Below are positions 1,786-32,100 of a stretch of 64,000 nt of DNA, piece after piece. This stretch comes from Rhizaria sp. SCN 62-66 (taxonomy: Eukaryota): contig MEDY01000100.1 in assembly GCA_001724265.1 (NCBI GenBank), positions 1-64,000 of the forward strand. Direction: 5' to 3'. The notes beneath the pieces are model-generated. The model was not told the DNA's origin and made no database searches. It saw only the letters and a program-made list of their open reading frames with translations. Position numbers and translations under genes: made by a program. Each line of letters starts with the position of its first letter. The first letter of the stretch is position 1.

Positions 1786-4700
1786 ATGCCAACTGTCCTG
1801 TGGGTCTCTTCCCCGAACACATCATGCGCTCTATCCGCCCAGGTACGCTCAAGCTTGATCATAACAGACATTGTCTGTATTTACCGACGATGATAACTTA
1901 CATCATGTAATATCGCTCTATTTTTGGACTTGATAGCCTTTGATAGAGTCGTACGCGCGCGTCAACGGGTGGCGCATCGTCCCTGTGTCTTCACTCTCTT
2001 GCCCCAAAGCGCAACTCTTCCTGCACTCCGACCCGACTTCCCCGCTCACCATCGTCACGGAAATCTACGTTGAAACAGTACTGAACGCACTTGTGCGCGT
2101 GAACCGCGATATTTCCGTCGTGTTCTATCCTCCCTACGACGTCGACAAACGTTACGCGGCTGCCGCCTACCCGCCGCCCCCTGCGACTGCCACAGCCTCT
2201 GCCTCGGCCTTCTTCCCTGCTCTCGCTCCCACGCCGCCGCCGGGCTTGACTCCCGCCGCGGCCCGGCTGGCGCGGACGCCGCAGGAGTTGGTCCAGGCCG
2301 TCGCCACCGCGCTGCGCCTGCCGCTGCGCGCGCCGCCGCTCTCGGCCTTCCTCGGTTTCGGTCTCGACCTTGATTCCACGGCTGCGGCCGCTAGCTGTGC
2401 CGACGGAGACAGGAGCGTGCAGATGCGGGCGCAGGTTTGCGGCCCCGTTGCCCCGCGTTACCAGACGAGTGTACGCCTGCTGAACCCTCCTAGCGTTCGC
2501 GACTACAACTGCAACAACTGCAATAGCCCCAGTCACTGCCACTGCAACTGCGACAGCAGCGGCAACATTAGGATGAGTGCAGGTTGTGGCGCGTATTCCG
2601 CCGGTTATGCGGGCTTTGCCGGCACCGCCGCTAGCGATGCTGCCGATCATTACGCGATGGTTGAGGCCGAGCCTTACGCGGGTGCTGCTGCAGAGGCCGC
2701 GGACCTCGCGGCCGTGGCTGCTGCGACCTACGCCACCGCCGCGGCCGCGCGGGCCAGCGGGGCGAACGCTGCCGAGCACGGACACCTGCCTCTGCACCTC
2801 CACGCGCACAGCCAGAGCGGCCGCAGAGACTGCTGCACTGGTGGCGCCGCCATTGCGACTGAGTGCGCCTGTGTTGGCGTATGCGAGTGCTCTTTCCCTC
2901 GCATCAGCTGCAACAACAACAGCAACAACACCACTCACTCTTATAGTGTCGCGAACAGCGTCCTGCTGTCCCACAGCTCCACCGACGGCGCCAGCGGTAA
3001 CGGCGCCAACGGTGTCGTTATGGCCCGGAGCAGCCTCGCGCCGCTGCCGCACTACACGCACTGGAAGCGCGCGCGCGGCGACGCCGCCCCCGCGGACAGC
3101 TACTTCCTCGCCACGGGCGCGGCGGCGGCGCCCAGCGTGGCGGTCGCCGCCGACGCCGCTGCCAACGCCGTAGAGCTACGACGGCGCGCGGCCGGACTGA
3201 AGCCTGCGTACGACACTGCGCGACGCTGCTGCGCTGCCCACGGCCACTGCGCCACTGCCCACGGTCACTGTAAGGGCGCTCACAGTCGCATGGAGGTGAG
3301 CGCAGGCAAGGGCAGTGTGAGCGTGAGCTTGAGCAGGGGTGGGTGTGGTGCGCGGTGCTGCAAACAACACGGTAGCTCGTGCACGTGCCGTTGTACGTGT
3401 GCTCGTGTCGCGACGCTTGCCGTGCATAAGACAAACGACAACAACACCACAGATATCAGCGGCAGTATGAGCAGGAGCAGCAGAACAAGTAGCTCTACCA
3501 TGAGTGAGCTTCGCAGTGCCCCTGCTGAGAACGACGAAGCGAAAGCTACAGTGGAAGATGACATCCTGATTTCCCAGCATCACATCTGCAGTTCTGGCGT
3601 CACTCAGAACGATATCAGAGACGTCAGTGACGGCAATCCCAGCCATGCAGTTGCCGACAGAAGCGGTAGCTCGGAGAGTAACGTAAACGCAGGCAGCACG
3701 TTTGTTCCTCAAGAGGAGACCAAAGAGCCCCACGTTTCTAGCTCTCGCGACGATGCTTGCACCGCCAGTCCATCTTGCGCCGCCTCGGGCTCTCGCCCTG
3801 CCACAGACGCCATCGCGCTCGTGACCATGCGCGACGCCCGCGTGCTGGCCGCACAGAGCGCGCTCGCAGCCGCGCGCGGCGCCGCCACCGCGGCCAGCGC
3901 CGCGGTCAGCGCCGCGGCCGCGGAGGGCGAGAGCGCCAGCATGCGCGACCTGAGCGCGCGCGTCGCCGCGTTTACGCAGCGCGCGCAGGCTCTGCTCGCG
4001 CAATCAAGCGCTGGCGCAAGCTCTGCCAGCAGCACGAGCGTGAACGCGAGCGCTCCCTCTGTGTCGGGTTGCGCGACTGAATTGAGAAATGACACGACAG
4101 TCCTTCGCCGCAGTTATCAGAGTGTTGCGCGCGCCGAGCCGCCAGCAGTCGAGGTCTTCGACTCGCCGCTTTGCCCGCTGGCCCGCCTGCTGAACACCAG
4201 CACCCACACCGCGGTCCCGCTCGACAACCGGTCGTGGCGATCCGTCGACCACTACCTGCTGCACCTGACGCTGCTCGCAGCGGCGCTGCCGGGTCCCGCG
4301 CAGAGCATGCTCACGGTCCCCACGGTTGCTGTCGCGCACTTGGTCGCTTCACAGGCGCTCGCGAAGGCCAAGGACGCGCAGACCAACGCGGGCGCGCTCC
4401 CCGTGTTCACCCCGCACCTCACCACGAACGCGGACGTGGACGTGAACGCGAGCTAGAGTTTGGCCGCTGCCTCGACGGGCGCGACGGGACCGCTGCCCGG
4501 CGGCCGCGACGGCGCGGGCCCGCTGCGGCGCCCCGGAGTAGCCGTCGCGGCCGCGGACTGGGACTGCAACTCGCGCGCGCACTGGACCTCCCCGTCGCTG
4601 CGGCTGCAGATGCTGCGCGCCGTAAAGGCCAAGCTGGCAGCGTGCCCCGAGCTTAGGACCGCGTTGACGGCCACGGCGGGGCGCCAGCTCGTGTGGCGGG

Positions 4701-4786
4701 AGACGGCGCGGCACTGCCCGTTTGCGGTCAAGGCCAACGAGCAGCTGATGAAGATCCTCATGGGTATCCGCGACGGCAAGCTCTAA
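1786..4786 (+). CDS. Cys-rich, low-complexity protein with C-terminal NADAR/YbiA-like domain; contains an in-frame TAG at 4454-4456 (about 968 aa if read through)
   Basis: Exons 1786-1842 and 1937-4786, intron GTACGC...TTGATAG. NADAR-like motifs lie on both sides of the TAG: LDNRSWRSVDHYL before it; DWD...RLQMLRAVKAKLAACPELRTALTATAGRQLV...NEQLMKILMGIRD after it. GC-rich coding style persists to TAA 4784-4786. An extra upstream exon (ATG 1267-1313, spliced to 1776) is possible. Confidence 0.7.
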
Positions 4787-5175
4787 GTCGACAGCAGCTG
4801 AGCTAGGTTCAATTCGACATGTTTACTCATTGAGAGACGACGATATATATAGTTTAAGATAGAAATATAGAAATACAATGTTACCGTTTGTGACCAATTG
4901 AACTTTGTATTGTTGAAGGACGCTTGTACTGGCCCTTCTTAAAATAACTTTAGATCTCGTAACCATCACTAAAAAGACGACACGTGAAACCTAAAACGTA
5001 CTGAGACACTTTAATAAAATATTTACGACTACATGCTACAAACAGAGTAAAAAACTACGTAAGAATAACAAACCAATCAAAGCAACACAAACCCGAGACA
5101 AACCAACATAACTTAACGTTGCTTGTTCCGCGGTTGCGGTTAGAATACGACTGTTGAGTTTAAATTGCGCACTTC

Positions 5176-8100
5176 TTAGTTGAGGTACTCGCTGATGCTC
5201 TCGCCGGCGAGCGCCTCGATGGTCTTGACGACATCCTGCGCAAGCTTCTCGACGAGCACGTTGGCGTCCTGCATGCGCTCGGCGATGGCGGGCACAACCT
5301 TGGGCAGCAGCAGCAGGAACTCCTCCTTGTTGCGGAGGAAGTACTCGTGCAGCGCGCGCAGGGCCGCGAAGCGTACCATCGACGGGTTCGCGGCCGCGGA
5401 GCCCGTGGCGGCGGAGCGCGTGTGCTGGTACTGACCCATATGGTTCATCGTGCACGTGGCGAGCGTGTCCCACACGGCGGGGCCCGAGTAGCCCAGGTGC
5501 TCGCTGATGGCGCCCAGACACGGGATGAGCACGTCCTCGGCGAAGGCAGGGTATGCCAACAGGCGGTCCTGCGCCACGGCCGCCGCGGGCAGCGTAACCG
5601 TGCCTGTTAAGGCGCCGCTGCCGCTGCTGCTGTCGGTCGTCGACGTCGCGCCCGAGTCGGGCATGCGCACCGTGTGGCCCACCTCGAGCTGCGCGCACAC
5701 CACGGGCACCAGCTTCTCGAGCGCGTCCTTGTTGATGATGTTGACCGTCTGCCCGCCCATGCCCTTGGCCAGCACCGTGTCGGCCTCGACCGCGCCCGTC
5801 AGCGCGCCCAGCGCCAGCGACGCCGCCTGCGCGCGCCAGATCTGCAGGTTCTGGCGGCGGCGCAGGAACGCGCGCGCAGTGCGCACCTCCTCATCCTCGT
5901 CGTCGGCCGCCGCCGCGGAGCCAGACTTGCCACCGTCATCGGCGTCGTCAGCATCGTCGTCGCTGTCGCTGTCGCCCGCGCGGCGCTTGCCCTTCTTGCC
6001 CTTAAGCACGGCGGCGGCCTTCTTGCCGCCAGCGGCCAGCGAGAGCTTGAGCACCTTGGCGTCGGTCTTGGCGACGAGCTTGATAAGCGCGCGCTGCTTC
6101 TTGCCCAGCCGTGCGGGCGCCGCGAGGTACGCCGTCAGCAGCGGCAGCTGCGGCAGCAGGTACGGCGTGAAGATGTGGCGCAGCGAGCGCGCCAGCTGCT
6201 GCGCCAGCCGCAGGTACGGCAGCGCGCGCGACAGCGACACGTCGGTCCCGTTCTCCGCGAACGGGTCGCTCGACTTAGCCGCGGCGCCCGCACCAGCGCT
6301 GGAGGCGGCGTCGTCGTCCTCGTCGTCGTGCTGGCCCGAGTTGGAGCTGCGGCCGCTGCCGTAGGCGAAGGTGGACTGCGCCGCGGCCGCCGCAGCCGCC
6401 GCGGTGGCGTCCTCGACGGGCGAACCGTGCGCGGTGACCCACTCGGTCATAGCGGCGAAGAGCTGCTTGAGGTTGTCCTCGTCAAGCTTGAGGATAAAGG
6501 CCACCATGGCGTCAACGAGCCCGCGCTCGACGGAGAGCAGCGACGCGTCGGCCCACACGTTGCCCGTGTGCGCGCGCGCGGGCTCCGCCGCGGCCGCCTC
6601 GGCACTGGCGGACCGCTCGGCCCACGCGAAGGGCAGCAGCGACGTGTGCAGCGACACGTGCTTCTTGTGCGCGACGGCGGCGGCGACCATGGCCGCGGAG
6701 GACTTGGAGCCGCGGACAGTGGCGCCGACGCCGGCGAAGAGCGCCGCGAAGGCGTCGGTGCTTGCACTAGCGCTGCTGCCGCTGTTCTTGCCGCCGCTCT
6801 TGGCGAGCGCGGCGCGGGTGGCCTGGAGCGTGGCCTGCTCGAACTGACGGCGCAGATCCATGGCGTTGGTGAAGAACTGCACGAGTGCGTCGTAGTACTT
6901 CTCCACGCCGCGCTCGTCGTTGTCCGAGAGGTCGAAGGCGTCGGCGTCGTCGTCGTCGCCGAAGGCCGCGGTGCCGTCCAGCCCGGCGGCCGCGAACTCA
7001 AACACCTCGGCCATGGCGCCGTCGTCGCCGTCACCGTCGCCGTCGCCTCCGTAGGCCGCCGAACGGCGAGCGGTGACGCGGCGCGCGCCCATCGGCGTGA
7101 GCGTCTCGGCCACGCGCGCCACGAGCGCCAGCAGGCGGGCCGCGGACACGGCACCGCCAGTGAGCGGCGAGATGGCGCCGTGCCACGCGCTCAGCAGCGG
7201 CGGCAGCAGCACGCGCGGCGAGATGCACACGGCCGCCGTGTGCAGGCACGTCGACACTAGGCCCGACGCCGCGTACGCAGACGCGTCAGCGTTGCTCTGC
7301 GTGCCGCCGTTGGCCGGGCTGCTCGCGGCGCCCGCACCGGTGGCGTCGGTCGCAGCGGCGCCCGCGGTGGCGGCGGCGGCGCCGGCAACGGTGGCGAAGC
7401 GGAGGTCGGCGGCCGAGAGCGCCGAACGCTCGGGCAGCGTCGGGCGGAGCAGCGCGCTGAGCAGCGCCGGCAGGTACGGCTCCAGGAACTGCGGGAAGGA
7501 GCGGATGACGGCGTCGAGCACGGCCAGCGATGACAGCTGCAGAGTCGCGCGGCTCGCCGCCGAGAGCGACTCCGCGGCGGAGCCGGACTCGGTCAGGGCG
7601 CGGGACTTCTTCTGCGCACTGACGTCGTCGTCGTCGCTGTCGTCGATGGTGTTGACGGCGTTGTCCAGGTCGGCGGTCTTGTCGAGGACGGCGATGGCGA
7701 GCGGCGCGAGGTGCGAGAGGTGCTTGAGGCTGCGGATGCCGCAGCGCGCCGCGAGCGTCGCCACGCAAAGCAGCGACGACGACAGCAGCAGCGCCCACTG
7801 CTCCACGCCGGGACCGGCGACGCTCACACCAGCAGGAGCAGCAGCAGAGCCCTTCTTGGAGGACTTGCTGACGGTGGCGGTGGTAACGGCGCTGTGCTGC
7901 TGGGGCAGGAAGGTGCCGTTGGCGGCGACGACGGCGACGCGGAGCACGAGCGCGTACACGTCGAGCAGCGACGCCGTGAGCGCCGCGGGCAGCGCGAAGG
8001 CGCGCTTGACGCCGCCGACCGTCGCGGCCGAGAGCGCGGCCAACGCCGCCGCGGGGGCCGTGGTGGGCGCCGACAGCAGGCACGCGACGTCGGAGAGCTC

Positions 8101-11100
8101 GTCGACGCACAGCAGCGCGGCCTGCAGGTTCTCCATGTCCTCGCCCGCAGCGACTGCGGCGACGTCGTCGCCGTTGTCGTCTACGCTGCCGTCGTCGACG
8201 GTGAGGCGCCACTTGGCGAGGACGTCCTTGACGCCCGCGGCGGCGGCGTGCTGCGCGAGGAAGGGCGCGATGAGCTGCGTCGTCAGCGCGGGCACGATGC
8301 TCGTCAGCGCGCGCTGGCGGCGCCGCATCTGCGCCAGCCAGAGCTTGCGGCGCGCGGCGCGGCGGCCCGCGGCGTCGAGGTGCGCGAACTCGGCCGCGTC
8401 CGTCAGCAGCGCCACGTCGATCTCGTCGTCGTCGTCCGCGTCGTCGTCGTCGTCGCTGGCGTTGTCACCGTCGGCCTCGTCATTGTCAGAGTCGGCGCTG
8501 CCGCCGGCGCGGCGGCGCTGCTTGGCGAGCGCGGTGCCCTTGTTCGACACCAGGTGCAGGAAGGCCTCAGCGTGCGCGCGTTGGCGCTCAGTGCGCACGC
8601 GCTCGATCACGAGCAGCAGCAGCCGCTTTACGATCACGCGGCGCGCAGGCGTGAACACCGCAGAGTTTGCACTGGCGCTGGCGCCGGTGCGCGCAGAGGC
8701 GGCAGCAACTGAGGCCACGGCGGCAGGCCCCGCGGCGGCGACGGCGGCGACGGGCACGGGGAGGGTGAGCGCCGCGGCCGAGCCGGGCGTGGCGCCGGGC
8801 CGCAGCGAGAGCGCGAAGAGTGACTTGAACACGGCCGCGAAGTGCTGCGTGGCGAGCGTGGCCGACAGCGCCGTCAGCGTCGCAGAGGCGGACGCGCCGA
8901 GCGAGCGCCAATGGTGCTGCACGGCCTCCTCGGTGCCGTTGGCCGCGGCGACCGCGGTGGACGTGGGGGAGCCGAGCGAGACGGTGTCTGCGTCGCCAGT
9001 GGCGGGCAGCGTGATGGCGTCGACGAGCGTGGACATCGAGAGCAGGCGCGCGGTCAGCACCGCGAACGACTGCGACACGAAACGGAACTCGCACGCCGCG
9101 CTCTCCTCCACGCTGCCGCCGCCGTTGGCCACGGCGATGTTGGTGGTGGCGGCGAGGTGCGAGATGCGCGCGAGCTGCGCCGTGAAGGCCGGATGCGCGG
9201 CCGCCGAGGCGACGACCGACAGCACGGCCGCCCGCAGCGCGGCGCAGGCCACGGGGGCCGCGATCACCGCCGACGGCACCGGGCTCGGCGCCGGCAGCAC
9301 CAGCGCCAGCGCGGACACGCCGGCGTCGGCGCTGTCGCCGCCGTTGTTGGGGCCCGCAGAGAGCGCGTAGGCGACCATGGCGGCCATGGCGGCGGCCTGG
9401 GCGTGCGCCGGGAACGCGCCCAGCAGCGCACGGGCGGCGCTCACGGCCGTGGCCGTCGCGCTGGCCGTCACGGCGCCGCTGGCCTTGCCCGCGCCGGCCG
9501 CCTTGCCGGGGGCCGTGAGCGCCGCGGCGAGCAGGGCGACGACGGCGGCGGCGATGACCGAGGGCGGCACGCGCGCCGCGACTGCGCCGTCGTAGCCGGC
9601 CGCGTCGCTGCCGACCGCGCCGACGCCGGCACTGCCCGCGGCGGTGCTGGCGCTGGCGGCGGTGTCGGCCGAGGAGAGCGGGGCCGTGAAGGCGGGCGCG
9701 GCTGCGTTGGCGCCCAGGCGAGCCGCGCGGAGCGCATGAACCGCAAGAAGCGGCAGCACCGACGCGGCGCCGGTGCGCGCGGCGCCCGCGGTGGCGGCCG
9801 AGGCCGACAGGCGCGCGAGGCGGGCCAGCGCCTTGGCCAGTGCCGAGGCCGAGCGCGAGCGGGCCTTCTTGGCCGCAGCAGCACGGGACTCCTCACTGTA
9901 CTCGCTGTCATCCTCGTCGTCCTCGTCGTCGTCGTTATCCTCGTCGTCGCTGCCGTCATCGCCGTTGAGGATGGCGAGCTCGTCGGCGTCGAACATGCCG
10001 CCCTTGCTCTCCTCCTCGGCCTCGGCCACGGCGGTCTGCGCGCGCGCCGCCAGCCGCGCCACCTCGCGCGACTCGACGCGCGCGCACCCGGCGCCCGCGC
10101 GGGCTCCGGCCGCGAGCAGCAGCAGCCGCGACGCCGCGTCCACCTTGACACCGCTAGTACTGCCGTTGCTGGCGGCGGCGAGCGCGTGGAGCAGCGCCGA
10201 CGCGGCGGGGAGCACGCGCGCGGCGGCGGCCAGACTGGGCAGCCCGGGGGGCAGCGCGGCCTCGTCCGCGGCCACGGCGGCGGCCGAGTTGACGTCCACC
10301 AGCGCGGCCAGCGCCGCGGGCTCGCTGTCGCCCTCGGCCGCGGCTGTCAGGTCCAGCAGCGAAGCCAGCGTGTCGGCGGCCTCGGCCTCGGCGCGCGTGG
10401 CGGCGGCCGTGGTAGCGACAGCGCCCAGCCCGAGCAGCAGCGCCTGCGCGCCTCGGAGGGCCGCGTGGGCCGGGTGCGCGGCCGCGGGCGTGCGCGCGAC
10501 GGCGGCGTCGAGAGGCAGCACGGGCGCGGGCGCCAGCGCGGGCGCCGCCACGGAGCGCAGCAGGCGCAGCGCCACGTCGAGCTGCGAGCCCGGCACGACG
10601 ACGCGGGACGGCGCGCTCGCCGGGTGCTGTGACGCGCGGGCCGCGGCGGCGGCCGAGGCCGACACGGCGGCGCCGTGCTTGCCGGCGCTTTCGTCGTCGT
10701 CCTCATCGTCGCCGTTGCCCTCGCCGTAGACGGTGGCGGCAGAGTCGTCGTCGTCGTCGTCGCTGTTGTTCGCGTTGCCGGCGTGAGAGCCAGCGCCGGC
10801 GGTGTGCTGCGCGGAGCGGACGAAGGCGCGCGTGGTGGAGGGGAAGGGGAAGCCGAGGGCCTTGGCGGCGGCCTCCTCGGCGGCGACGGCGGCGACGGCG
10901 GCCGAGGCCAGCGGCAGCACGTGGGGCGCCGCGAGCGCGGGCGCGTGCGCGGCGACGAGCGCGAGCAGCTGCAGCGCTGCGTCGCGCGCGCGCGTGCGGG
11001 CCGAAAGCAGGATCGCGTCCGTGGTGACGGTGGCCACGTTGCTACTCAGCACCACGGCCGCGCTCACCAGCGCCGTGCCGCCTGTGGTCGCGGCACCTGC

Positions 11101-14100
11101 AGCGGCGGAGCGAGAGGCGGAGGCGGGGTACATGTGGCGCGTGGCGAGGGACGCGACGAGCGCGATGTCGGCGGCCGTCACGAGCCCGCTGTCGGCGCCC
11201 TTGACCGCGGCGGCACTCGCGCTGCTCGCGGTCACCGTGGTGGCGAGCAGGGCGGGGTTGAGCACGAGTACCACGTGCACGGCCTCGGCCAGCGGGCTCA
11301 CGCGCGCCGACAACTCGGCGCTGCTCGAGGCCGCGTCGCCTGACTCGGACTCGGCCTGCTCGAACTGGGAGACGGCGAGTGCGAGCGCGCCGAAGAGGGG
11401 GCGGACGAGCGCGCGCGACTGCTTGACCGCGGCCGAACCGGCCGTGGTGAGCGCGCGCGTCAGCAGCGGCACGGCCGTCGCCATCAGCGCGGGCATCGCG
11501 GCCGCAGACGCGGCGCCCGCCTTCTTACCGCCGGTGCTCGCGGCGAGGGGCGTGATGTGGGGCAGGAAGAGCGCGGCGGGGAGGCGCGCGCCCGCGGCCG
11601 AGGTGGGCTCGATGAGGTACGCGACGACGGCCTCGACCACGGTCACGGGGGCCGTGGCCAGCGCCACGTGCGCCTGTGACAGAAGCGTCACCTTGCTCAC
11701 GGCCGACTCGCTGTCCTCATCGCCGTCGTCGTCACTGTCACCGTTGCTGTTGGAGGCGGCGAGGAGCAGGAGCGCGTCGAAGAGCGCCTGCTGCGCGGCG
11801 GGAGTGCCCGCCAGCGCGCGCAGGGCCCCGGGCGCGGCGCGGGCGAGGGCGTCCACGGCTGCCGCGGCAAAGCAGAAGCGCAGCGTCAGCAGCGACCCAG
11901 GCGCGGCGCCGGCGGCCAGCGGCAGCGCGCAGCGGGGGCCGGCCTTGAGCAGTGCCAGCACCGCGGCGAGGGACGCCGGCGCGGCGGCGAGCGCCGGGAG
12001 GTCCGAGAGCGCGAGCGGCAGCAGCGCCGAGTCGACAAGCGTGCGCACCGTCACGGCGTGGAGGCCGGCCGCGATCGCCACCGCGGGCGCAGACAGCGCG
12101 CTCTCAGTTTGACTCTGACTGGCGCCGGAGTGGGCGCCGGGGAGCAGCGCGAGGGCGGCGACGGCGGCTGCGGGCAGCGCGGGCACGGCGGCGAGCGCGG
12201 CGCGGGCTGCGGGGTCCGCGCAGAGCGGCGCGAACAGCGACGCCGCCAGCGCCGTGTGGCACGGGGACGCGCCGACACCGCCACTGGGGCCGGCAGCCGC
12301 GGCCTTCTTGCTGCTCGCGGCGGAGAGCCAGGAGGAGAGGAAGGGCGCGAACACGGTGGCGAGGGCGTGGGCCTCGCTCACGGTCAGTGACGCCGAGTCG
12401 ACAGCGCTGCTGACGTCATCGTTCTCGTCGCTCATAGCGGTCACCGCGCCCTTCTTGCCGCCCTTCTTGGCGGGCACAGCGGCGGCAGCGGCGGCGGTCT
12501 CTGCGGTGGCCGAGAGCGCGGCAGTGACGAGCGCGACGCCGACGGCCGCGCCCTCGGCCAGCGCCAGTTCCGGCGCGGCGGCGGCGACGGCGTCGAGCAG
12601 CTTGCCCGCGCCCGCCCAGGCCGACACATCGGTCGCACCTGCGGCGGCCGCGGCGGCGGCGTGCGCGGCGACGTGCGGCCGCAGCGCCGCTAGCAGCGCC
12701 AGCGCCGCCGCGGCGGGCACGGCCACGCTGGCGCCGCTGCCGCTGCCGCTGCTGGAGCCGGTGCTGCTGGTGCTGCTGGCGGCAGGGCGGGAGAGCAGCG
12801 CGCCGAGGGCGAGCACGAGCAGCTCGGCTAGCGCGGCCGGGGCCGCCACGGCGCTCGCGCTGACCGAGGCCGCCGAGACAGAGGCGCGCAGCAGCGCAGT
12901 GAGGTGGGCCAGCGCGGCTGCCGCGGCTGCCGCGGCGCGGGCGGGGTCCACCAACGCGGGCGAGGACGACAGCGCCGCCGACAGCATGCCGCGCGCGGCG
13001 GCCGCGGCGGGGGACACGGAGGCGTCGGCAGCCGTCTCAGCGCTAGAGCCGCTGCTGCTGCTGCTGCTGCTGCTGGCGGAAGCAGAGGCGAGGGCAGCGG
13101 CGGGGAAGGCCGCGGTGGGCACGAGCAGCGCCAGCGGGAGACTGGCCGAAGCGGAGCCGCCGCCGGGGACGCGGGAGGCGAGCAGGGCCCACAGGGCCTC
13201 GGCGCCCACGCGCACGCTGCACACGGGCCCGCTCACGGTCACCGCAGAGCTGGCGCCGTGGGAGCTGGATGCGGCAAGGAGGTAGGAGCCGTCGCCGGCG
13301 GCGCTGGCGGGCGCCCAGAGTCCGGCCGCGGGCTGCAGCAGCGTGAGGTACAGGCTCGCGACAACGCCCGCCGCGGCGGCCTCGCCGCAGCCCGCGCCGC
13401 CGCCGACGGCGGCCGCGGCGGCCTCGGCGAGTTCGCCGGCCGTGGCCAGGGCGCGGGGCGCCGTGGCGGCGGCGACGACGGCGTTGGCAACGGCGGCGCC
13501 CCAGCGCAGGTCCGTGCCCGCGGCGGCGGCGGCGGCGGGCGCGGGCAGAGAGGCGAGCGCGGCGGCGGCGGCGGCGCGCAGCAGTGCGCTCAGTGACGCC
13601 GGGGCAGCGGTTGCCGCGGTCAGGACGAACTTGCCCGCACCGGCGCCGCCAGTGCTGCTAGAGGCGGCCTTGCCCTTCTTGGCGACAGTCTCACCAGCGC
13701 CGGCGGCGGTGTAGACGGGGAGGGCGACCGTGCTCGCCTCGGCGGCAGCGGCGCCCGTGGCCGCGGTGGCGGCGGCGGTGTCGATGGCGGCGCCGGCGGC
13801 GGTCGCGCGGGTCAGCACCGCGGTCACGGCGGCGGCCACCGCGCCCGTGGCGGCGGCGGAGTCGGCACTGGCGCTATTGGCGAGGAACATGGCGGCGGCA
13901 GCGAGCGCGATGCGCTGCACGGCCGAGGGCAGCACGCCCAGGACCTGGGGCGCAGCGGGCGCGGCCGTAGCCGAGGCGCCCGCGGGGAACGACGGCACGG
14001 GCAGCGCAGGGTAGGGCCGCAGCAGCAGTGCGCGCAGGGCCGCCACGGGGCTGGCGCTGGTAGCCTTGGCCTTAGAGGAGGTGGTGAAGAGCGCGGTGGC

Positions 14101-17172: not shown

Positions 17173-17996
17173 CAGCGACGGGGGGCGGGCGGCGGCGACT
17201 GCGGCGCGGGTGTGTGGAAAGGAAGTAGTGGTGAGGTTGGGTCGGTTAGTGCAGCGAGCAAGAGGCTGGCGCTAAGCGAACGGGGGAAAAGAAAATAAGG
17301 GACTGAGAGCTGCGAGACGCGGCTGTTGGAGAGCTATAGAGGCAAGGTATTGCAGGGTACAATTATGAGAGGAGCCGGGTCGGTGAGAAAGAGAACGGGA
17401 CATGAAACGAGAGGGTGAGCAAATAGCAGTTGTTATCCCGAATGAGCCCACGGGGCAGAGGCTCCTGCGCGGGCGGACCGACAAGCATAGTCATGAAAAT
17501 TATGAATCTATTTAGCACAGATCATAGACTAATCAAAAATCTTTGTTAGATTGCTATTGGCAATATAACTGGTGCGCAAGACGGCAAACGCGTACTCGCC
17601 TCTCGACCACTGCGTCCACGGACCAAAACCCTTAGAGCGCCGCCCACGGTCACTCTGCAGTCTGTCTTGTCTCACAGTCAGTGTTGGCAATGCTCTGGAA
17701 GGCGTACGGCACCAGAGTGCCTGGCTCTATCTTCTCCGTCGATTGTTATCATTCACCCATGGTTGCTATTTTCCGCAAACTTTCTATTTAAATTTGTTAT
17801 CTACACTCCTGCGCAGTCGCGTCTTCCCCTTATACCCGATGCCTTAAAAGCACGCCTCACCGTGTCTTCTCGCGAAGACCGACCGCTCACATCCCCGTTC
17901 TCCCAACGTGCAATTCTTTTTGAATACTGAATTATGACACTAATCCTCAAACCATGCAACTTTGTTTTTCTATTTTTGTTATTCTCGCTGCCACAG
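17173..17996. promoter_or_regulatory. Divergent intergenic region between HEATR1 and GRWD1 (putative bidirectional promoter)
   Basis: Head-to-head ATGs about 820 nt apart. Each is preceded by a CTAAY branch-like motif, a pyrimidine tract and CAG. Confidence 0.5.
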
Positions 17997-19834
17997 ATGT
18001 CCAACTCGCTGCGCAAGAAGGACAACCGGTCTCGCGTCTCAGGCGAGCACGCCCCCGCCCCGTCCTCGAAGCGCCGCGGCGCGTCCGACAACAAGGGTGG
18101 CAACGGCGGCGACGACGAGGAGGATGGCAACGAGCTCGAGGACGAAGCGGACCTCGAGTTTGAGGACCCCTTCGGCGATGAGTTCGAGGAGGAGATCATC
18201 GTGGACGGCGACAGCGAGGAGGCCCGCGCCGACGCCGCGCGCTACGAGCCCGGTGGCGAGGGCGCCCCGGCGTCGACGCAGCGCGTGTGGCGCGCGGGGC
18301 TCGACCCGATCGGCGAGGACGAGGTGCTGGACCACGACCCCACGGCGTACACGCTCTTCCACAAGCTCAAGGTCGAGTGGCCGTGTCTGTCGATCGACAT
18401 CCTGCGCGACTCGCTGGGCGCGTACCGCACCAAGCTGCCCGCGGCGCTGTACATGGTTGCCGGCTCCCAGGCCGACGACGCCGGCAAGAACAAGGTCTCG
18501 CTGCTCAAAATCACGAACCTGTGCCGCACGTCGCTGCCCGACGAGGACGAGGACGACGACGACGACGATGACGAGGACGGCGCCGCGGGCCAGGACCCTC
18601 TGGTCGAGGCGCGCGCCTTCAAGCACCCCGGCGGCGTGAACCGCATCCGCGCGATGCCGCAGCAGCCGTCGCTCGTGGCCACGTGGGCCGACACGGGCGC
18701 CGTGCACCTGTGGAACATGTCTGCGCACTCGGCCAGCATCGACGCGCCCACCGAGGTCTTCGAGGCCAACAACAAGCCCATGGCCTCGATGCTCTCCTTC
18801 GAGGGTCACGGCAGCGAGGGCTTCGCGCTCGACTGGTCGCACGTCGCCGCGGGCCGCCTCGCTTCGGGCTGCTGCGGCGGCAAAATCTTCCTCTACACTG
18901 TTGACCCCGCAGGCGCCGTCACCGTCGACGCCGCGCCCTTCAACGTCCACGAGGGCGCCTCGGTCGAGGACATCCAGTGGTCCGCCACCGAGGAGTTCAT
19001 CTTCGCCGCGGGCGCCACCGACGGCACGGTGCGCATTTTCGACTCGCGCGCATATGCCCGCGGGCGCCACATGCTGTCGGTCAAGTGCCACGACGCCGAC
19101 GTCAACGTCATCTCGTGGAACCGTAACGGCGACGGCAGCATGCTCGCGTCGGGCGGTGACGACGGCCGTCTGCGCGTGTGGGACCTGCGGTACTTCTCTC
19201 AGACCTCGGTGCCGGCCGACTTCAATTACCACAAGAAGGCCATCACCTCGGTCCAGTGGCACCCGCACGAGGAGTCGGTGCTTATCGCATCCTCCGAGGA
19301 CGACTCCGTGTCCGTCTGGGACCTCGCGCTCGAGGCTGATGCAGAGGAGGTCGCGCGCGAGGCCACGGGCGCGCAGATGGTCGACTACTCGATCCCGCCA
19401 CAGCTGCTTTTCGTGCACATGGGCCAGACCCACATCAAGGAGGCCCACTTCCACCCCCAGGTACGTCTCTATTCACGTCTCTATTTGATGTCTATCAGAG
19501 GATATCTACAAGAATGATACTTTGTCACAACGAAATGTATCCATTTTCACTTGCTGTCACTTCATTTGGTGTCAAAAACATTCCCGTATTGCCTGACAAG
19601 GATCCACATTATGATATTTTATTTCCCGTTCTCACATTATCTCCCTTTCCTATGATCTCCGCAAACGCGTTTTTTTTTGCTGCTGCTGCACAGGTGCCTT
19701 CGCTGATTCTGACGACCGCATCTGAGGGCATCGACATCTTCAAGCCGGCCAACATGGACGTGCTGCTGCCGCCCGCCGCCGACGGCGCGGGTGCCGACGG
19801 CGCGGCCGCCGCTGACGGTGTCGCCGTCGACTAA
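17997..19834 (+). CDS. GRWD1: Glutamate-rich WD40 protein / ribosome assembly protein Rrb1, about 534 aa
   Basis: Exons 17997-19460 and 19694-19834. LEFEDPFGDEFEEE, DPTAYTLFHKLKVEWPCLSIDI, HPGGVNRIR, EGFALDWS, SVEDIQWS, DVNVISWN, PPQLLFVHMGQTHIKEAHFHPQ|VPSLILTTASEGIDIFKP. Confidence 0.93.
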
Positions 19835-20359: not shown

Positions 20360-23300
20360 ATGTCGAGTCGCCGCGTTCTCGACAACGACGATGACGAGGT
20401 CGATATCGACGCTCTCATCCTTAACCAGGGTACGATTTTAGCAACGTCATATTTATGTTCTACCGATTTACGCAGGTTGCATCCTTCCGCGCCTTTGTTG
20501 TCATAATGTGCACTCGTGTTTGTTCTCACGACCGACACCTTTGTTCCACTCCTTGGTCCTACTTGCTCCCCTTGCTCGCTTCACTCTGCGTCACACAGGC
20601 GCCACTGAGGACGCGTTTGCGGGCTTCACCAGCACCCCCACGGACAAGGGCATTGTTATGCGCGACGCTGATGACGTCGCCAACCTCGAAATCGACGACA
20701 TTTTCGACGGCCTCGCGCCTGAGCCCACCACCAGCTCCAGCTCCAGCTCTGCTTCGGCCTCTGCCGCCGGCGACTCGTTCACTACCCCGCGCCACGTGCG
20801 CTCCCGCGGCCGGTACACGGACGTTGCCAGCGGCACTCCGGGCTGGTTCCGGCTGCAGGCGTCGCCCCCCACCAGCACGCTCTACATCTCCCGCCAGGTA
20901 CTGCCACGTTCACTAAAGCCAGGATATCTCAACATAACTAAAACATTCTAACGTGTAACCTTGCTGCAATATGAATCTTGCGACATAACATTATTGTATG
21001 GAGTTTCCATCTAACATCTATTATCCTCGTTGTTTTGCACTCTGTATTCTACCTGTGCTCTCCAGGACCCCGGCCGCACTGTGTTGACTCTCCCGGCCCT
21101 CAGCTCAAGCTCTAGCTCTAGCTCTAACGCGCGCGCCAAGGCCGAAACCATCGAGTTCGAGCCCCCCGCGTCCGTCATCGGCGCCAGCACCTCGACCTCC
21201 GTTGCCCTCGACAACGGCATCGCCGCCATCAATCTGGATGACACCGCCGCCGCTGGCTCTCAGTCCGACGGGAACCCACACCAGCAGATCGCCATCAGCA
21301 CGGCGTCGGGCGCGCTCATGCCGCTGATTGACCAGCCCAAGTTCGAGATCCGGTCTGCTGCGGCCTCGGTGCGCGCCGCGAAGGAGGCCGCGGCGGCCAA
21401 GGCAGCCGAGGACAACCGCACGGGCGCCGAGGCGCAGCTCCGGTCCGCGCTGCTCTTCGGCGGTAAGGTCACCACGCGCGTCAACAACAGCACAGTCGAC
21501 AGCAAGGACAACAGCAGCAGCAGCTCTGCCAGCGCCAGTGCCAGCGCTGACTCGAGCTCCAGCTCGGCGAGTCATGTGACCGTGAGCAGCATCCCCCTGG
21601 GCCACGGCTACAGCATCCCACAGGACGACCTCCGGCAGCAAATCGACCGACTGGACGCCTCGGTGCTGCGCCGCACCTACAGCATCCTTGACAGCGAGGC
21701 TGTCAAGCTATATTCCGCGGTCAAGTCAGGCGCCATCGCCAACCCCGTCAAGACCGAGCCAGGCGCCGCGAGTGCTGACGCTGCCGCCGACGACGACGAT
21801 GACTGCGAGCCGATCGACTCGAGCGATCTCAGTGCGCTGGGCGCGCCGTCGCTGCGCGTGGGCTACTTCACCGGCCGCATCCGCGACGATGAGGCCGCGG
21901 GGCCCGGCGCGACGGGGCTCAACAAGCTCCGCCCCGGCAACGTCATCCTCGAGGGCGTCAAGGCGCTGCCCGGCTGCGCCCGCGTGCGACTCGGCCACGC
22001 CGCGCTGTCCAACGTCTCGCTCTTCCCCGGCCAGGTCGTCGTCGTGCGCGGCGTGAACCACACCGGCAGCACAATCGTCGCCGACGCCATCTTCAGCGAA
22101 TGCGCGCTGCCTACCAAGGAGGAGTTCTTCGGCGTCAACGTTAACACCTCCGCCGTCGGTGCCAGTACATCTGCGATGTCTGCCAGTGCGAAGATGACTG
22201 ACGGCGAGGAGGCCAAGAGCGAGAACAAGGCCGCCGCCAAGGGCGTCACCGTTAAGGCCGAGCCCGGCACCGCCGCCGCTGCCTCCGCGAGCTCTCACAG
22301 CGCGAGTAGTGACAGCCTCGCGCCCTCCGGCAGTAGTAGCTCGAGCGAGCCGACCGTGTTCTGTCCCGACGGGCTGTCGATGATCGTCGCGTGCGGCCCC
22401 TTCACGACGACGGACAACATAACCAACGCGCCGCTGTCGGACCTGCTGGCCTCGATCACAGCGTCGCCCGCGACCGCGCCCGCCGTGCTCATGCTCTGCG
22501 GCCCCTTCGTCGACGCAGAGAACCACCCCATGCTCAAGCCTGGTAAGTGACTATACCCCTATTAGGACAGAATTGAAATGATTTAAAAGGCTTGATTTCC
22601 ACCAATATCATGAAATATGTTTTTTTAACTCTATTTTGCGATTATTATCTTATCTTATTTTATTTTGCGTGATTTTTCATGAAAACAGATGTTTTCCGCA
22701 GCTCAACCTACGAGGGCTACTACGAGGCCCTGATCAACGACGTCGTCGTTCGGCTCGAGTCCGCCAAGCTTCCCACCAAGGTCATTGTTGTGCCTTCCCT
22801 CAAGGACACGCACCACTTCGGTTTCTCGCTGCCGCAGCCGCCGTTCGCGTTCAATCCGGACCCGTCGCGCGTGTTCAACGTGTCCAACCCCGCGCTGCTC
22901 AACATCGCAGGCACGCTCGTTGCCGTCACCAGCCACGACATTGTCTCCGAGCTCGGCCGCGTCGAGCTCTACGCGGAGCACAACAACGCCACTAACGCCG
23001 CGGTCAAGTCCGAGAAGTCCGAGACCGCTGCGAGCGACTCTTCGTCTACCTCAGCCTCTGCCTCCGCGATTGCTGAGGAGAGCAAGTCTGCAAGTAGTGC
23101 CGGTGCGAGTGCGGGTGCGTCAACGACGCACCCGAAGGACCGCCGTCTGATCCGCTTGGTTTCCGCGCTGCTGGACCAGGGCTCGTTCTACCCCATCTAC
23201 CCCCCGCCCGCGGGAACCAGCGTCGACCAGACGGCTTCGGCGCACGGGTTGGGCTTGTCGATTCCGGTCGCGCCCGACGTGCTCATCACGCCCTCGCGCC

Positions 23301-23512
23301 TCACGCGTTTCGCAGACCGTATCCCGCTGCCCGGCCGCGGCTTCTCAGGCCGCCGCAGTGACCCTGCGGTAGACTGCGAGCGCGCCGTCGTGTGCATCAA
23401 CCCGGAGTACCTCGCTAAAGGGCCCTCTGGCGGGTCCTACGCCGTGGTGACCGTGGGGCAGGGCAACGGGCCCGTGCCCGCCAGGACCAAGGTCGAGGTC
23501 GTCAAGATCTGA
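20360..23512 (+). CDS. POLA2: DNA polymerase alpha-primase subunit B (Pol12), about 889 aa
   Basis: Exons 20360-20429, 20599-20897, 21066-22542 and 22689-23512, phases consistent. GRI...KL...VILEG...SLFPGQVVVVRGVNHTG, VACGPFTT, CGPFVD, VVPSLKD, SNPALLNI, QGSFYPIYPP, PDVLITPS, CINP...GSYA. Confidence 0.9.
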
Positions 23513-26125: not shown

Positions 26126-29100
26126 GATGCGAGCAACACTCTCGTCGCCCGGAGCAAGGGCAGCAACTCGGTCGACGGCTACGAGGGCATCCGTCTTGCA
26201 GCCGGGCTGCCAGACGGCTTAACTTCCACCTCCAGCACCGTTGGCGACGCTGGCGGCCTGCATTCCACCTCTACAAGCCCTAACGCCGCCGCGGCCGCTG
26301 CCGCGGCCGCTGCCGCCGCGGCCGCTGCCGCCGCGGCCGCCGACGCCGCCGACGCCGAGGGCGCGGCCGCCGTGGCCGCCGAGCGCCGCCGCCGCCGTGC
26401 GCTGTTGCGGGCGGCGCGGCACACGCGCTGGGAGGTGCCGCTACCCATGGGCGCTGCGGCAGTGCTGGAATACGAGCAGCTGCACGGGTCGCTGCCGGAG
26501 CCGGGGACGGCCGAAAGCGACGCTCTCTTCCACATCACTTCCAACAACAACAGCGCCAACGTCAACGGCAATGGGAGCAGCACCGCGGGCAAGTTTCAGT
26601 CCGGCCTCGTCGGTGCGAGTTTGAGCGTGAGTCTCAGCCACGCTGGCAGCGGCGCTCACCGGCCCGGGCTGCGGCAGGGGCTGTCCGAGGTCGCGCTCGA
26701 CGCCGCCACGTTAGCCCGCGACGATACGTTCAATAACAACTTTAGCGCGAGTCCGAGCGCGAACGTCGGGGGCAACTTCACTAACGGCGGCTTCTTTTCG
26801 CTCGCGCGCAACAACGGGCTCGTGCCTTCTGACTCCGCCGCGAACGGCGGCAGCGCGCTGCTGAACAGCTCGAGCGTCGCGGACGGCGACAGCGGCTTTG
26901 TCGGCAGCAGCAGCGGCTGGGGCGGCGACGGCGAGCGCCTCAGCAGCCTCGACCCCGGCGCGTACAACTACACTGACACGGCTACAGACGACAACAACAA
27001 CAATAACAATACTAACAACGCCAACTCTTTGGGCCACACCGCACCGAATGCGCTTGTGTTGTCGTCGTCGAACTTGTCGAGTAACGCGAACAACAGCACC
27101 GCAAGCCTGGTTTCGACGCCGACCGCCGCGGCCGGACTGGGCCTGTCGCTGGCGTCGTCGTCGCGCCTCGGCGGGTCGCTGCTGGAGGCGCGCGAGGACG
27201 GCTCCCGCACGCACACGGTCACCAACAACGTCGTGCGCTGGCTTAAGGTGTGCATCAAGCCCGCCAAGTACGTCGGCCCCGACGAGCGCGCCGCCGCCAA
27301 GCGCAGGCAGGAGCAGGAACGGCTGCACGGCCAGTCGCAGTCGCGGCGCATCGTCATGGACACGCTTGGCATGGGCATCGCGGCTTCGGCGAAAACTAAC
27401 TACAACAGCAAATCAAACGCGTACGTCTTATAACCACTTCACAGAGCGATCTCCTCTGTAATGTTGCATTTTCACACAATTATATTATTTTAGTTTCCCA
27501 CTCATTTTTAACACCCTTTCATTCTTCGCCCCACACAGCGCTGACGACGTCGCTGCGGCGGACAAGGCCGCGGACGAGTTCATCGCCTCGCACCCGGTCT
27601 GGGACGGCGTGCGCACACGCCAGGACAAGATCGACCAGTACAAGCAGCGCTCCCTGCACTTTTTCGAGCCCGAACACCCGTTCCGGCGCGCGTGCATCAT
27701 GACGGTGCACAACAAGTGGTTCGACCGGCTAATCGCAGTCACCGTCTTCGTCTGCTTCTTGTTCCTCGCCTTCGCCTCGGCGCGGGAGTCCCGCACCATG
27801 GCTACGGAGAAGAACATCTTCTACTGGGCCGAGCTGTCCTTTTCCACGCTCTTCACGATCGAGTTCCTGCTCAAGATTGTCGCCATGGGCTTCATCAACG
27901 CCGGGCCCCGCAGCTACCTCCGCAGCGGGTATAACATCATCGACTTCTGCGTGCTCTGGGTGGGCTGGATGTCGCTATCGCCACAGATCCGCTGGACCGC
28001 CATCCGGTCTCTGCGTTTGCTGCGTATCATCAAAATCGTCAACGCCATCAAGGGCATCCGCATCCAGGTCACCGCGATCATCTCGTCCATCCCTTCGCTG
28101 CGGTCAGTCTTCATGTTTTCCATGTACATCATCGTGCTCTTCGCCGTCTTCTTCACGCGCTTCGCCATGGGCGAAATGCGCTACCGCTGCACCGACTCGT
28201 CCACGGCCACAGCGCCGCCGGAGGTCGTGCTTTCGGGCCCCATGTGCTCCACGGACCCGTTCTGGGGCCGCAAATGCTCCGTGGCCGACTACGGGCCCGA
28301 CGCGGGCTGCCGCGACATCGGTGCCAATCCGAACTGGGGCGTTACGTCCTTCGACAACGTCGGCGTTGCCGCACTTAACATGCTCATCTGCACCTCGATG
28401 GAAGGCTGGAGCGAGATTATGTACTTGTACGGCGAAGTGACGACGCGCTGGATGTACATCCCGTTCCTCATCTTCATGCTGCTGGCCGCCTACGTCGCGC
28501 TGCGCTTTATCTCAGCCGTGCTGGTGCTGCGCTACGAGCAGGGCAAGGCCGCCGCCGAGTCGATTGAGGCGCTGTTCAAGTGGAAGAAGACCCGCCAGCA
28601 GCGCATCACGGTCAACAAGGTCGGCGGCATCGACGGCCAGGTCGCCGACATCTCCGCGCCGCAGCCCTCCGCGGCTTTCAGCGAGCTGGACAGAACCGTG
28701 AGCGTGGCTCCTGTGGCGACATCCATGGGCGCTGTGCTGGCGCAGGTCTCGCCCCGCGCGCTCTCCGCGAACAGCGCGTGCGGCGGCGCGGGCAGCAGCG
28801 GCAACCTGCTCACGCACAGCTCGAGCGTTTTCGCCAGCTCCGGATCCGGCGCCACCGCCACCGCTAGCGCTAGCAATGGCTCTGCTGCTGGTGCTGCTGG
28901 CAAGGGGCATGATGTGCCTCTGTATCTCGCTGCTGCGGCTGAGGTCGAGGCCGCCGCCGCTGCTGCTGCCGCCGCCGTCGCGGTCACCGACAACTCGACT
29001 GCGAGTGCAGGCGTGGAGATGCCGGTGCCCGCTGACCTGCCGTTCGAGATCCCCGTCTCCGCTCCCGTGACCTTCGCGATGGCGCTGGCGTGGCAACAGG

Positions 29101-32100
29101 TCGGCGACAAGGCCTCGTCCTTTGTCCACTCGGACCTCACCGGCAGCGCTGCCAACGCCAACGCGGCCTCGGCTGAGGCTGCGACTGCCGGCGCGGGTGA
29201 CGCGGCGGGGAAGACGCGCTCTCGCTCGGGCACGAAGACCTCGGTGCCCCGGGCTCCCAGTGCTCCGAGCGCGGCTGCTGCTGGCGGCATCATTGCGAGT
29301 AAGTTCAACGAGGAGGAGGAAGAGGAGGATGCCGTGAGGCCCATGCCTAGCTTTGGCCGCACCGCCGCTGCCTCCACGGCCTCAGTCGCCCCCGTCACCG
29401 CGCCTACTCAGGGCGCTCAGAGCGCGCAGAGCGAGCATGCTCACGATCATATGGTGCTGCGCCTGAACACGGGGCTGACGATCAACAGCAACGTCGACGA
29501 CAGCGACGACGATGACGAGCACGCCCACGCCCGCCACATCGTCGACTCCAACGGCATTGCGGGGACGCTGACAGGCGACAACGACAACGGCGACGACTTC
29601 GGGCTCGCGTCCCCGAACCAGTTCACCGCGCCGCCCACCCAGCCCATGCCGCTCACGCCCTCGGTCTCGCTCACCGTCACAAACAGCCGCAACGCCGCCG
29701 CGGGCCCCGTCATCGGCGGCGGCGGCGGCCCGTACAAGTCCCCTGGGGTGGTCCCGCGGTCGCCGCGCTGCTCCCCGCTGGCGCTGGCGATGCCGCTGCC
29801 GGCGATCACGCCCACCGCGCGCCTCAGCATCGTCGGCACAGGCTCGCTCCTCGCGCCGCACGACCCCAACGCCAGCGGCCACGCCACCGCCGCCGCGGGC
29901 GACTCGGCGACAGACCCGCAGCAGCAGCAACAGGCGCAGACGCCATTGCAGCAGCAGATGCAGCGTCGCCGCGCGTCCTTCAACCGCTCCTCCGCCACGG
30001 GCGCCTCCCTGAGCCGCGGCTGGGACGTCGACACGCTCGACTCAGGCTACGGCGGACCCTCGGCCGACCCCCTCGCGGCCGCCGGATTTACGCAGCCACC
30101 CATGGACGCCGGCCTGCAGCCGCCGCAGCAGTACGGCCGGTCGCCGGTGGTCCCGGGCGCCGCCGGCAACACGCTCACGGTTCCCGGGCTGTTGCTGACC
30201 GCCGCGGGCGCCCCGGGCGGCAGCCGCGGCAACAGCCCCGGCGCCAGCCCCCGGGGCAGCGTCAGCCGCGGCATGCCCTTCTTCAGCCCCGGTGGCCGCG
30301 CCAACCCCGGGAGCAGCTCGGCCGCGACGCCGGTCGGCGTGATGGGCGACGACGCGGTCATCGCCCCCCGCAGCGCCAGCGCCAGTGTGGCGTCACCGCG
30401 CAAGGTGCCCGACCTGGCGCTACCGCCGCCGCCCGTGCCGGCCCCACCGCCCCCGGACGACGACGACGACGATGTCCACGACGGCGGCAGCAGGGGCCCG
30501 CTGGCGCCCCCGCACCCGCCGCCGCGCCCCGACGGCAGCGGCGCGAACGACGGCACGCCCGCGACCGCTGCCGCTGACGCAGAGGCGCTGGCCGAACTGA
30601 CGCGGCAGCGCGGCGCGTCCCGGCTCCGGTCCGACACCGTCTCCCTCGTGTCCCCCTCGAACGCCAACGCTGATATCGCTGACAACGTCGACTTCAATCG
30701 CCAGGCCAGCGGCAGCGTCTCGCGCAGCGGCGGTGTCGAGTCCGGCAACAGCTTCCGCGGCCAGCCCCGGCTGCGCGCGGCGACCCAGGCGCTGCCGCCG
30801 CAGCAGCAGCAGGCGCCGCCGTCGCCGGTGCCGAGCAACAGCGCACGGCTGCTGGGCGCGGGCGGTGCGGCGGGCAGCAGCAGCAGCGGGACACCTATGC
30901 AGCGCAGCAGGTTCTACTCGCAGACGCACTAGCCACAGGCGCTGTCACAGCAGGGGGAGCGGTCCAACACGCAGCAACAGCAGCAGCAGCAGCAGCGGAG
31001 ACTGCGGCACCGCGTGCCTAAGGCTACCGGTGTGTCTTCAACCGGCGATAACGGTGACACAAACAACAACGCGGGCGGCGCCAGCGACATGTTCACGTTC
31101 GGCTACGACCACGACGACGATCACGACGACAACAACGACGATGGTGACGACAACTACAACGGCGAAAACGCCGCGGCCGCCGGTGAGAAGGCCGGTCTGA
31201 GCAAGGACAAGGACAACTCACGGTCCTTTTGGGAGGCGCTGCGCATCGGCTGCGTGCGATGCTGCCAGCGCGGCGGCTCGGGCGGCTGCTTCGCGCGCTC
31301 GGACCCGCGGTATGACCCCGCGCTGGGCTACGCCGTGGACCAAAAGAAGGACAAGGCCGAGGACGAATACCACGGCTGCTACTCGAAGCGCGCTGTGTGT
31401 GTGCGCAACCCCTTCCGGCTGCGCGTGGGCCACGTCGTCCGGTCCATTGTGTTCCAGCTCGTGATTTACCTGATCGTGCTGTACAACACTGTGACCATCT
31501 CGGTGCAGTACTACGGCATGAGCACCAGCATGAGCGACTGGATCTACGCGTCCACGCTCTGCTGCACCGCGCTTTTTCTCGCCGAGGGCCTGCTCAAGCT
31601 CTACGGTCTGGGCCCCTACGAGTACTTCCGCTCCGGCTACAACCTCGCTGAGGCCGCGGTCACCATCGGCGCGCTCATTGAAGCTATTTTGACCGACGGC
31701 GTGTCCATCTCGGCGCTCCACGTGCTGCGGTTCATCCGCCTCTTCGAGGAGGACACGTTGCTGAAGGCCGCGAAGGACTACCGCGCCTGGCAGCTGCTGC
31801 GCAAGCAGGAGGCCGTGCAGCGCGCCTCGGACGCTGGCGACGCCGCCGCTTTGGCGGCCGCGACCGCGGCGCTGGCTGAGGAGGAGGAGGCCGCCGCCAA
31901 CGCCAACGGCGGCGGGGCGTCGTGGCAGCAGAGCAGCAAGTTCATTCGGACTAAGTACTTCATCCGTACCATCGTGTCCTCGGCTAAGGACACCTTCTAC
32001 TGCATCTGCATCCTGATCGCGTTCATCTTCTTCGCCGCCGTCATCGGCCGCTCGTTCTTGGAGGGCAAGATGGTCGACCTCGACGGATTCCCCGTGCGCA

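Follow-up and report, generated by a model that had tools for sequence, protein, structure and literature searches.

The question raised by positions 1 to 64,000 of contig MEDY01000100.1 (assembly GCA_001724265.1, Rhizaria sp. SCN 62-66; this whole stretch of 64,000 nucleotides, which is eukaryotic sequence, is called the window) is whether its organism reads the codon UAG as an amino acid while UAA and UGA continue to terminate translation. Two genes of the window, one referred to here as gene 1 and the other specifying a putative four-domain cation channel, are each interrupted by a single in-frame stop codon, and in both that codon is TAG. The best explanation of the evidence set out below is that UAG is translated, and a probability of roughly 0.55 is attached to this interpretation. 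Few genetic codes give UAG and UAA different meanings, and each new lineage that does so tests how changes in release factors and transfer RNAs (tRNAs) permit the split.

Two interrupted genes and a census of terminators

Spliced models of 11 genes, ten of them complete, amount to 16,445 codons, in which the only in-frame stops are the two TAG codons listed in Table 1; neither TAA nor TGA occurs in frame. A preliminary description of this DNA, made from the sequence alone, had reported two genes with one in-frame stop each, both TAG, and the census confirms this. The two codons fall in the frames of open reading frames (ORFs) 2423-4786 and 27699-39290 and stand in unlike contexts (AGC TAG AGT and CAC TAG CCA). 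TAG thereby makes up about 0.012% of codons (2/16,445), a frequency comparable to those of the rarest ordinary codons, ATA with 4 and TTA with 7 occurrences. Read out of frame, the same coding sequences contain 69 TAG, 81 TAA and 354 TGA triplets.

Of the ten complete genes, six terminate at TAA, four at TGA and none at TAG, a count that the preliminary description gave correctly even though two apparent ORF ends (TGA 22548-22550 and TAA 39288-39290) lie inside introns; the true terminators of those two genes are TGA 23510-23512 and TAA 46228-46230. When the gaps between genes were searched for ORFs, the only further coding-like ORF was the upstream exon of a WD40/EML-like gene, and the weaker gap ORFs that were checked end in TGA or TAA, with TAG at none of them. 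Two GC-richer patches amid AT-rich islands, 23753-24852 on the minus strand and 19517-21318, may be short multi-exon genes, with no Pfam match in support; the DNA polymerase alpha B gene may have upstream exons there, and the patches could enlarge the terminator census.

Table 1. Coordinates of the features discussed, in window positions
Feature	Position	Strand	Description
Gene 1	2423..4786	+	787 codons and TAA; N-terminal part low-complexity
Gene 1 C-terminal domain	~4073-4783	+	YbiA/NADAR-like; split by TAG 4454
In-frame TAG no. 1	4454..4456	+	Gene 1 codon 678; residue 128 in the analysed C-terminal domain
UTP10/HEATR1-like gene	5176..17172	-	3998 codons, single exon, no in-frame stop, TAA; in census
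GRWD1/RRB1 gene	17934..19517	+	TGA terminator; used to place the organism
DNA polymerase alpha subunit B intron	22543..22688	+	GTAAGT...ACAG, AT-rich; reference for intron appearance here
Channel exon 1	27699..39212	+	Ion_trans domain I ahead of the TAG (codons 5-284), domains II and III beyond it
In-frame TAG no. 2	30930..30932	+	Channel gene codon 1078; in the low-complexity sequence linking domains I and II
Channel intron 1	39213..39331	+	GTACGG...TCAG, AT-rich; holds the apparent TAA of the ORF, 39288-39290
Channel exon 2	39332..40027	+	First part of Ion_trans domain IV (profile 4-69)
Channel intron 2	40028..40155	+	GTACGT...ATAG, AT-rich
Channel exon 3	40156..46230	+	Rest of domain IV (profile 71-235), long tail; TAA 46228-46230

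Continuation of coding sequence past the TAG codons

Exons throughout the window have a GC content at third codon positions (GC3) of 0.78-0.92, and introns and spacers are AT-rich with a GC of about 0.3, an extreme contrast that leaves the borders of genes and introns readable from composition alone. After TAG 4454 the same frame runs on with a GC3 of 0.91, a log-likelihood ratio of +0.18 per codon and no stop, the other two forward frames scoring -0.66 and -1.18. Over the 600 nt past TAG 30930, the same frame has a GC3 of 0.85 and a log-likelihood ratio of +0.40. No AT-rich island lies within 3621-4770 or within 28431-31440. The claim that each frame continues into conserved sequence is confirmed; for the channel gene this follows from Pfam matches to Ion_trans domains II-IV, and for gene 1 from homologues and predicted fold, not from Pfam.

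The TAG of gene 1 splits a C-terminal domain that, judging from its structural model, appears to be YbiA/NADAR-like (DUF1768 fold). Pfam gave no family for gene 1 even at E<=10, a sequence search of the PDB gave no relevant match, and an initial search for homologues was without matches, its candidates probably having been swamped by low-complexity words. HMMER, run exhaustively over 1.84 billion proteins, yielded six matches to the domain. Two of the six come from the organism itself and are ORFs severed precisely at the TAG, one stopping at residue 127 and the other beginning at residue 130; the other four are homologues (identity 55, 36, 39 and 31%), every one of which carries both halves of the domain in one ORF. 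The alignment of this five-sequence family contains 33 invariant columns, 20 of them past the TAG, and the TAG itself falls in a variable loop with no conserved column. The length of this loop varies naturally, since one of the homologues carries an equally long loop. Between TAG 4454 and the conserved C-terminal half there is no ATG.

An AlphaFold2 model of the domain built from the five-row alignment (mean predicted local distance difference test score, pLDDT, 73; predicted template modelling score 0.66) packs the two halves together, with pLDDT of at least 90 in approximately residues 41-100 and 171-237, and places the TAG in a disordered, low-confidence loop at residues 108-161. The top two PDB matches of the model in Foldseek, 2b3w (YbiA of E. 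coli) and 8bau (NADAR of Phytophthora), extend over both halves (222-250 columns) with probabilities of 1.00 and 0.99 and template modelling scores by target of 0.64 and 0.57, at weak E-values of 0.08 and 0.2; no Foldseek match reached E<=0.001. Thus the model matches the YbiA/NADAR proteins over its whole length, but it does so without a Pfam match and with weak fold E-values. The gene 1 family (P0005-P0008, P0130) is very small, with four homologues among 1.84 billion representatives, all metagenomic, and in its whole-protein members (P0008, P0130 and gene 1 of the window) the domain ends a long low-complexity protein.

The channel gene (27699-46230, plus strand) is a giant of about 6094 codons in three exons, its domains being spaced by Ala/Gly/Ser/Gln-rich low-complexity linkers of hundreds to more than 1,000 residues. 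It contains four Ion_trans (PF00520) repeats, of which the first precedes the TAG and the second to fourth follow it; the fourth bridges intron 2, where profile positions 4-69 and 71-235 are joined. The TAG lies within a Gln-rich stretch. Known four-domain channels are single polypeptides, and the four repeats found here form one polypeptide only if TAG 30930 is read through. The architecture presumably corresponds to that of the four-domain voltage-gated cation channels Cav, Nav, NALCN and Cch1, which likewise carry four Ion_trans domains in one gene; the gene of the window differs in its very long low-complexity linkers and its length. A homologue search with the channel returned as its sole match the organism's own post-TAG ORF, on record from three contigs, and the stretch that follows domain IV, a tail of some 1,800 residues, has no Pfam match.

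In public protein collections gene 1 appears as two separate ORFs, and the portion of the channel beyond its TAG is likewise entered as an independent ORF. Gene callers already cut the genes of this organism at TAG, and annotation and binning under the standard code would therefore be systematically wrong for this organism.

Possible removal or alteration of the TAG codons in messenger RNA

The continuity of the reading frames could in principle be restored at the level of the mature messenger RNA (mRNA), either by an atypical GC-rich in-frame intron or by editing, for example of UAG to UGG, or else by translational bypass of the codon. The standard for an intron of this organism is provided by the three verified introns (22543-22688, 39213-39331 and 40028-40155), removal of which yields open frames; they measure 119-146 nt, have a GC of 0.28-0.35, start with GTAAGT or GTACG and have a pyrimidine-rich tract leading up to a terminal YAG. 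Frame-preserving GT..AG pairs enclosing the TAG do exist, numbering 224 at the gene 1 site and 189 at the channel site, and among them is a candidate of 54 nt in gene 1 (GTGTTC...CTAG). In the closest homologue of gene 1, some 29 residues surrounding the TAG are missing. Yet the best-ranked candidates listed have a GC of 0.62-0.78 and match the consensus 5' splice site at 4-5 of 6 positions, and the codon bias of both genes runs up to and past the TAG. There is no plausible intron across either TAG, as the preliminary description had stated of consensus introns.

The RNA evidence described below bears on the same alternative. A contig from polyadenylated (polyA) RNA contains TAG 30930 unspliced and unedited, although contigs drop rare variants and partial editing would be possible; its coverage concerns the channel codon and not TAG 4454. 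The residues missing from the closest homologue of gene 1 are offset by the other homologue with its equally long loop. Loss or alteration of the TAG codons in mRNA is thus regarded as very unlikely.

Recurrence of the TAG codons in other assemblies

Both TAG codons recur in contigs of other assemblies. When metagenomes were scanned with the gene 1 family, two contigs only were found, the distant relative L002 discussed below and L001 (3.1 kb), which equals window positions 3721-6821 with 0 mismatches in 3101 and keeps TAG 4454. The ORF ending at this TAG is recorded from four contigs, and the ORF starting after it from six. The gene catalogue includes contigs as long as 203 kb. For the channel gene, a contig of run X4 (30755-31155, 401 nt) spans TAG 30930 with 0 differences. 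The runs containing the window are labelled as bioreactor, wastewater, activated-sludge and microbial-fuel-cell metagenomes, and one of them, X5, is a polyA metatranscriptome. A contig of this RNA run (30455-31032, 578 nt) spans TAG 30930 unchanged, its one difference from the window being absent from the listed differences away from contig ends. Four runs list no difference at 30930-30932, the listed pieces of runs X3 and X6 not covering position 30930 and so neither confirming nor contradicting the codon. The runs that contain TAG 30930 come from different studies and are dated from 2015 to 2025. Neither TAG is an assembly error.

Run X5 also shows a depth spike at 36765-37415 (7362 as against about 2-20 elsewhere) on GCC/GCG-rich low-complexity sequence. 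This spike is most likely cross-mapping from other organisms and not expression.

Reassignment, nonsense mutation or readthrough

Under the interpretation preferred here, ribosomes would decode UAG as an amino acid, presumably by means of a tRNA with a CUA anticodon, and eRF1 would terminate inefficiently at UAG, with UAA and UGA staying terminators; the rule would hold genome-wide. UAG would then be a very rare sense codon, placed so far in weakly constrained loops only. As argued in PMC5304391, only a CUA anticodon reads UAG without also reading UAA.

Several observations weigh against this interpretation. Both TAG codons lie outside conserved columns, and no column shows the residue inserted or indeed that translation takes place; in gene 1, the closest homologue lacks the surrounding residues altogether. 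Searches of the window gave no tRNA gene and no Rfam family, and eRF1 is not among its genes. On the RNA side, a single run contributes a single assembled contig, which concerns TAG 30930 only and may be DNA carry-over, as an RNA library can hold DNA; the intron junctions of the channel gene are not among the 15 RNA junctions listed (631 further ones exist). Six of the ten run differences past TAG 30930 are synonymous, a 6:4 ratio that comes from a small sample of mixed contigs. About 20 kb of L002, examined as a distant relative (1-20552; gene 1 family at 30% identity; GC 0.53), has no in-frame TAG and no ORFs that would fuse with TAG as sense. Random nonsense point mutations under the codon usage of the window would give TAG in 71-74% of cases (about 72%), so that under simple decay the probability of both stops being TAG is about 0.5. 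If TAG is assumed to hold a share of 35-15% of terminators, its absence from all ten has a probability of 0.013-0.20. Finally, support for the interpretation comes from two codons and ten terminators only.

The preliminary description had already conceded that two codons were its support, a count to which the ten terminators may be added, and all tests made within the window agree with its reading of UAG as sense and of UAA and UGA as stops; the extension to a genome-wide rule has only these same few codons behind it. Its observation that both stops are TAG and no terminator is TAG is correct, but the statistical weight of this pattern is smaller than that description implied. That both stops are TAG is uninformative because GC-rich codon usage makes TAG the commonest nonsense outcome, and the lack of TAG among ten terminators is mildly informative. 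L002 says nothing about the code of the window organism; its ORFs end in TAA (5) or, in one case, in an ambiguous 'TAG GTA TGA', with no convincing ORF ending in TGA.

These figures give some force to an explanation under the standard code, in which the TAGs are recent, fixed nonsense mutations and gene 1 and the channel gene are young pseudogenes or truncated alleles with a coding signature that has not yet decayed. Two TAGs need no special code when some 72% of nonsense mutations produce one, and zero TAG among ten terminators fits the standard code with a probability of up to 0.2. The TAGs lie in loops, where nothing else marks selection. Moreover, because the runs are nearly identical, with few differences over 19.5 kb, the reproducibility of the codons may reflect one clone sampled repeatedly. 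What this explanation must accommodate is that two of 11 genes would be broken while the 16,443 other codons are without a stop or frameshift, that the half of gene 1 beyond the TAG is conserved in four of four homologues, and that a four-domain channel would have lost domain I; to our knowledge there is no precedent for a channel protein with domains II-IV only. The presence of TAG 30930 in runs of different studies over the decade from 2015, the synonymous share of the differences beyond it (6/10) and the fact that TAG is never a terminator here also speak against nonsense mutation, which is considered unlikely. In genes that are intact and conserved, no in-frame stop would be expected, and the case for translation of UAG is one that rests on biology: two of 11 genes are interrupted before indispensable parts, in a set of models otherwise unbroken.

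A different way of reconciling the TAGs with functional proteins is readthrough, with UAG still a stop elsewhere and decoded at these sites in a context-dependent, ambiguous or programmed manner by a near-cognate or suppressor tRNA. Such readthrough would produce the same observations as a sense UAG. The extreme rarity of in-frame TAG (2/16,445) suits site-specific events, and with ten terminators TAG stops elsewhere are possible. Ambiguous stop/sense codes are documented for other protists. The two TAG contexts differ from each other, however, and no TAG terminator is seen among the ten genes. Neither context matches the known UAG-CARYYA readthrough motif. Readthrough would also need to be efficient, since truncation destroys a domain in both genes. 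This explanation is accordingly judged quite improbable, and translation of UAG as an ordinary if rare sense codon is preferred to it.

Possible identity of the amino acid and state of the code

Because both TAGs stand in non-conserved, probably disordered loops, the amino acid that UAG would specify is not named here. The preliminary description favoured glutamine; estimated from codon counts, of all single mutational sources glutamine (CAG to TAG) is the likeliest, with leucine, which UAG specifies in the only rhizarian precedent, and others also candidates.

The rarity of UAG and its placement in loops fit a reassignment that is still young as well as a codon that is decoded poorly. It is tentatively suggested, as a possibility less likely to be right than wrong, that the organism is a wastewater protist, possibly rhizarian, in an early phase of codon capture, in which UAG has gone as a terminator and is reappearing as an ultra-rare sense codon in loops. 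If true, such a state would be a natural snapshot of a rarely observed intermediate that theories of code change predict, and it would represent an independent origin of UAG-only reassignment. Were the sense reading of UAG confirmed, the known cases would be joined by an uncultured lineage, found repeatedly in metagenomes of bioreactors and wastewater, in which low UAG use could mark early reassignment.

Relation to known UAG-only codes

Among known codes of this kind, the closest comparison is with the rhizarian exLh, a sainouroid. As reported in PMC5304391, UAG in exLh specifies leucine, with 384 in-frame UAG codons in 71 genes, many of them at conserved leucine columns; the terminators are UAA (56) and UGA (15) only, and UAG is rarest in the most highly expressed genes. 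The window resembles exLh in that UAG alone occurs in frame and the terminators are UAA and UGA only (here 6 and 4), and in the weak rhizarian placement described below. It differs in that in-frame UAG is common in exLh, whereas two are found here in 11 genes, none at a conserved column.

Iotanema spirale (Fornicata) reads UAG as glutamine and has UAA as its dominant stop (PMC5304391, PMC11687900). The meaning of its UAG was proven from conserved alignment columns together with a likelihood test, and a T32G change is present in its eRF1 (PMC5304391). UAG and UAA differ in meaning in Iotanema as they would here, and glutamine is both the pick of the preliminary description and the likeliest mutational source in the window. 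Iotanema belongs to another supergroup, however, and the proof from conserved columns and a likelihood test, like the eRF1 change, has no counterpart here.

Other changes confined to UAG, as listed in PMC11687900, are those of Scotinosphaera (serine), phyllopharyngean ciliates (leucine, glutamine) and Protocruzia tuzeti (glutamine). In these too UAG alone is reassigned and the meaning of UAA is kept, so that a code of this type has arisen repeatedly; the organisms in question are a green alga and ciliates. The precedents named by the preliminary description (Iotanema with glutamine, a rhizarian with leucine, some ciliates) were incomplete, since Scotinosphaera, the phyllopharyngeans and Protocruzia were missing. 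Amoeboaphelidium was considered as a further UAG-only precedent and rejected, the literature giving UAR as glutamine in that organism. If real, the code of the window organism joins a known kind and is distinguished within it by very low use of UAG.

Affinity of the organism

The GRWD1 protein was used to place the organism. Its top named matches have 43-45% identity and are from oomycetes, and the rhizarian Plasmodiophora has 46%; environmental relatives reach 69% and 58%, and one relative is 69% identical in GRWD1 and 55% in gene 1. A quick tree was built from this one gene with 26 rows picked from 120 listed; in it, the window lies within a clade of seven environmental sequences with a support of 96 in the Shimodaira-Hasegawa-like approximate likelihood ratio test (SH-aLRT), and this clade is grouped with Rhizaria at SH-aLRT 92, with the fork drawn open. 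The single-gene tree weakly suggests an affinity of the organism to Rhizaria. A scan of prokaryote genome contigs with GRWD1 gave as its sole match an unrelated cyanobacterial WD40 locus (L003).

Other genes

Pfam matches in the UTP10/HEATR1-like gene occur at its ends only (U3snoRNP10 at residues 247-323 and BP28CT at 3541-3589), on either side of a very Ala-rich interior, and the gene is about twice the usual length for this protein. The genes of L002 comprise an NSUN-type methyltransferase, PLAC8, Aha1 and EFTUD2/Snu114. In the window, six tandem LIM domains are encoded at 49977-51563 on the plus strand in a gene ending in TAA, with repeat units of 258-279 nt that share 71-84% DNA identity; the start of this gene probably lies in an upstream exon. 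The WD40/EML-like gene on the minus strand (57502-60654 and 60752-61549) has a second, upstream exon, which encodes the first beta-propeller of EML; the intervening intron is AT-rich and measures about 97 nt.

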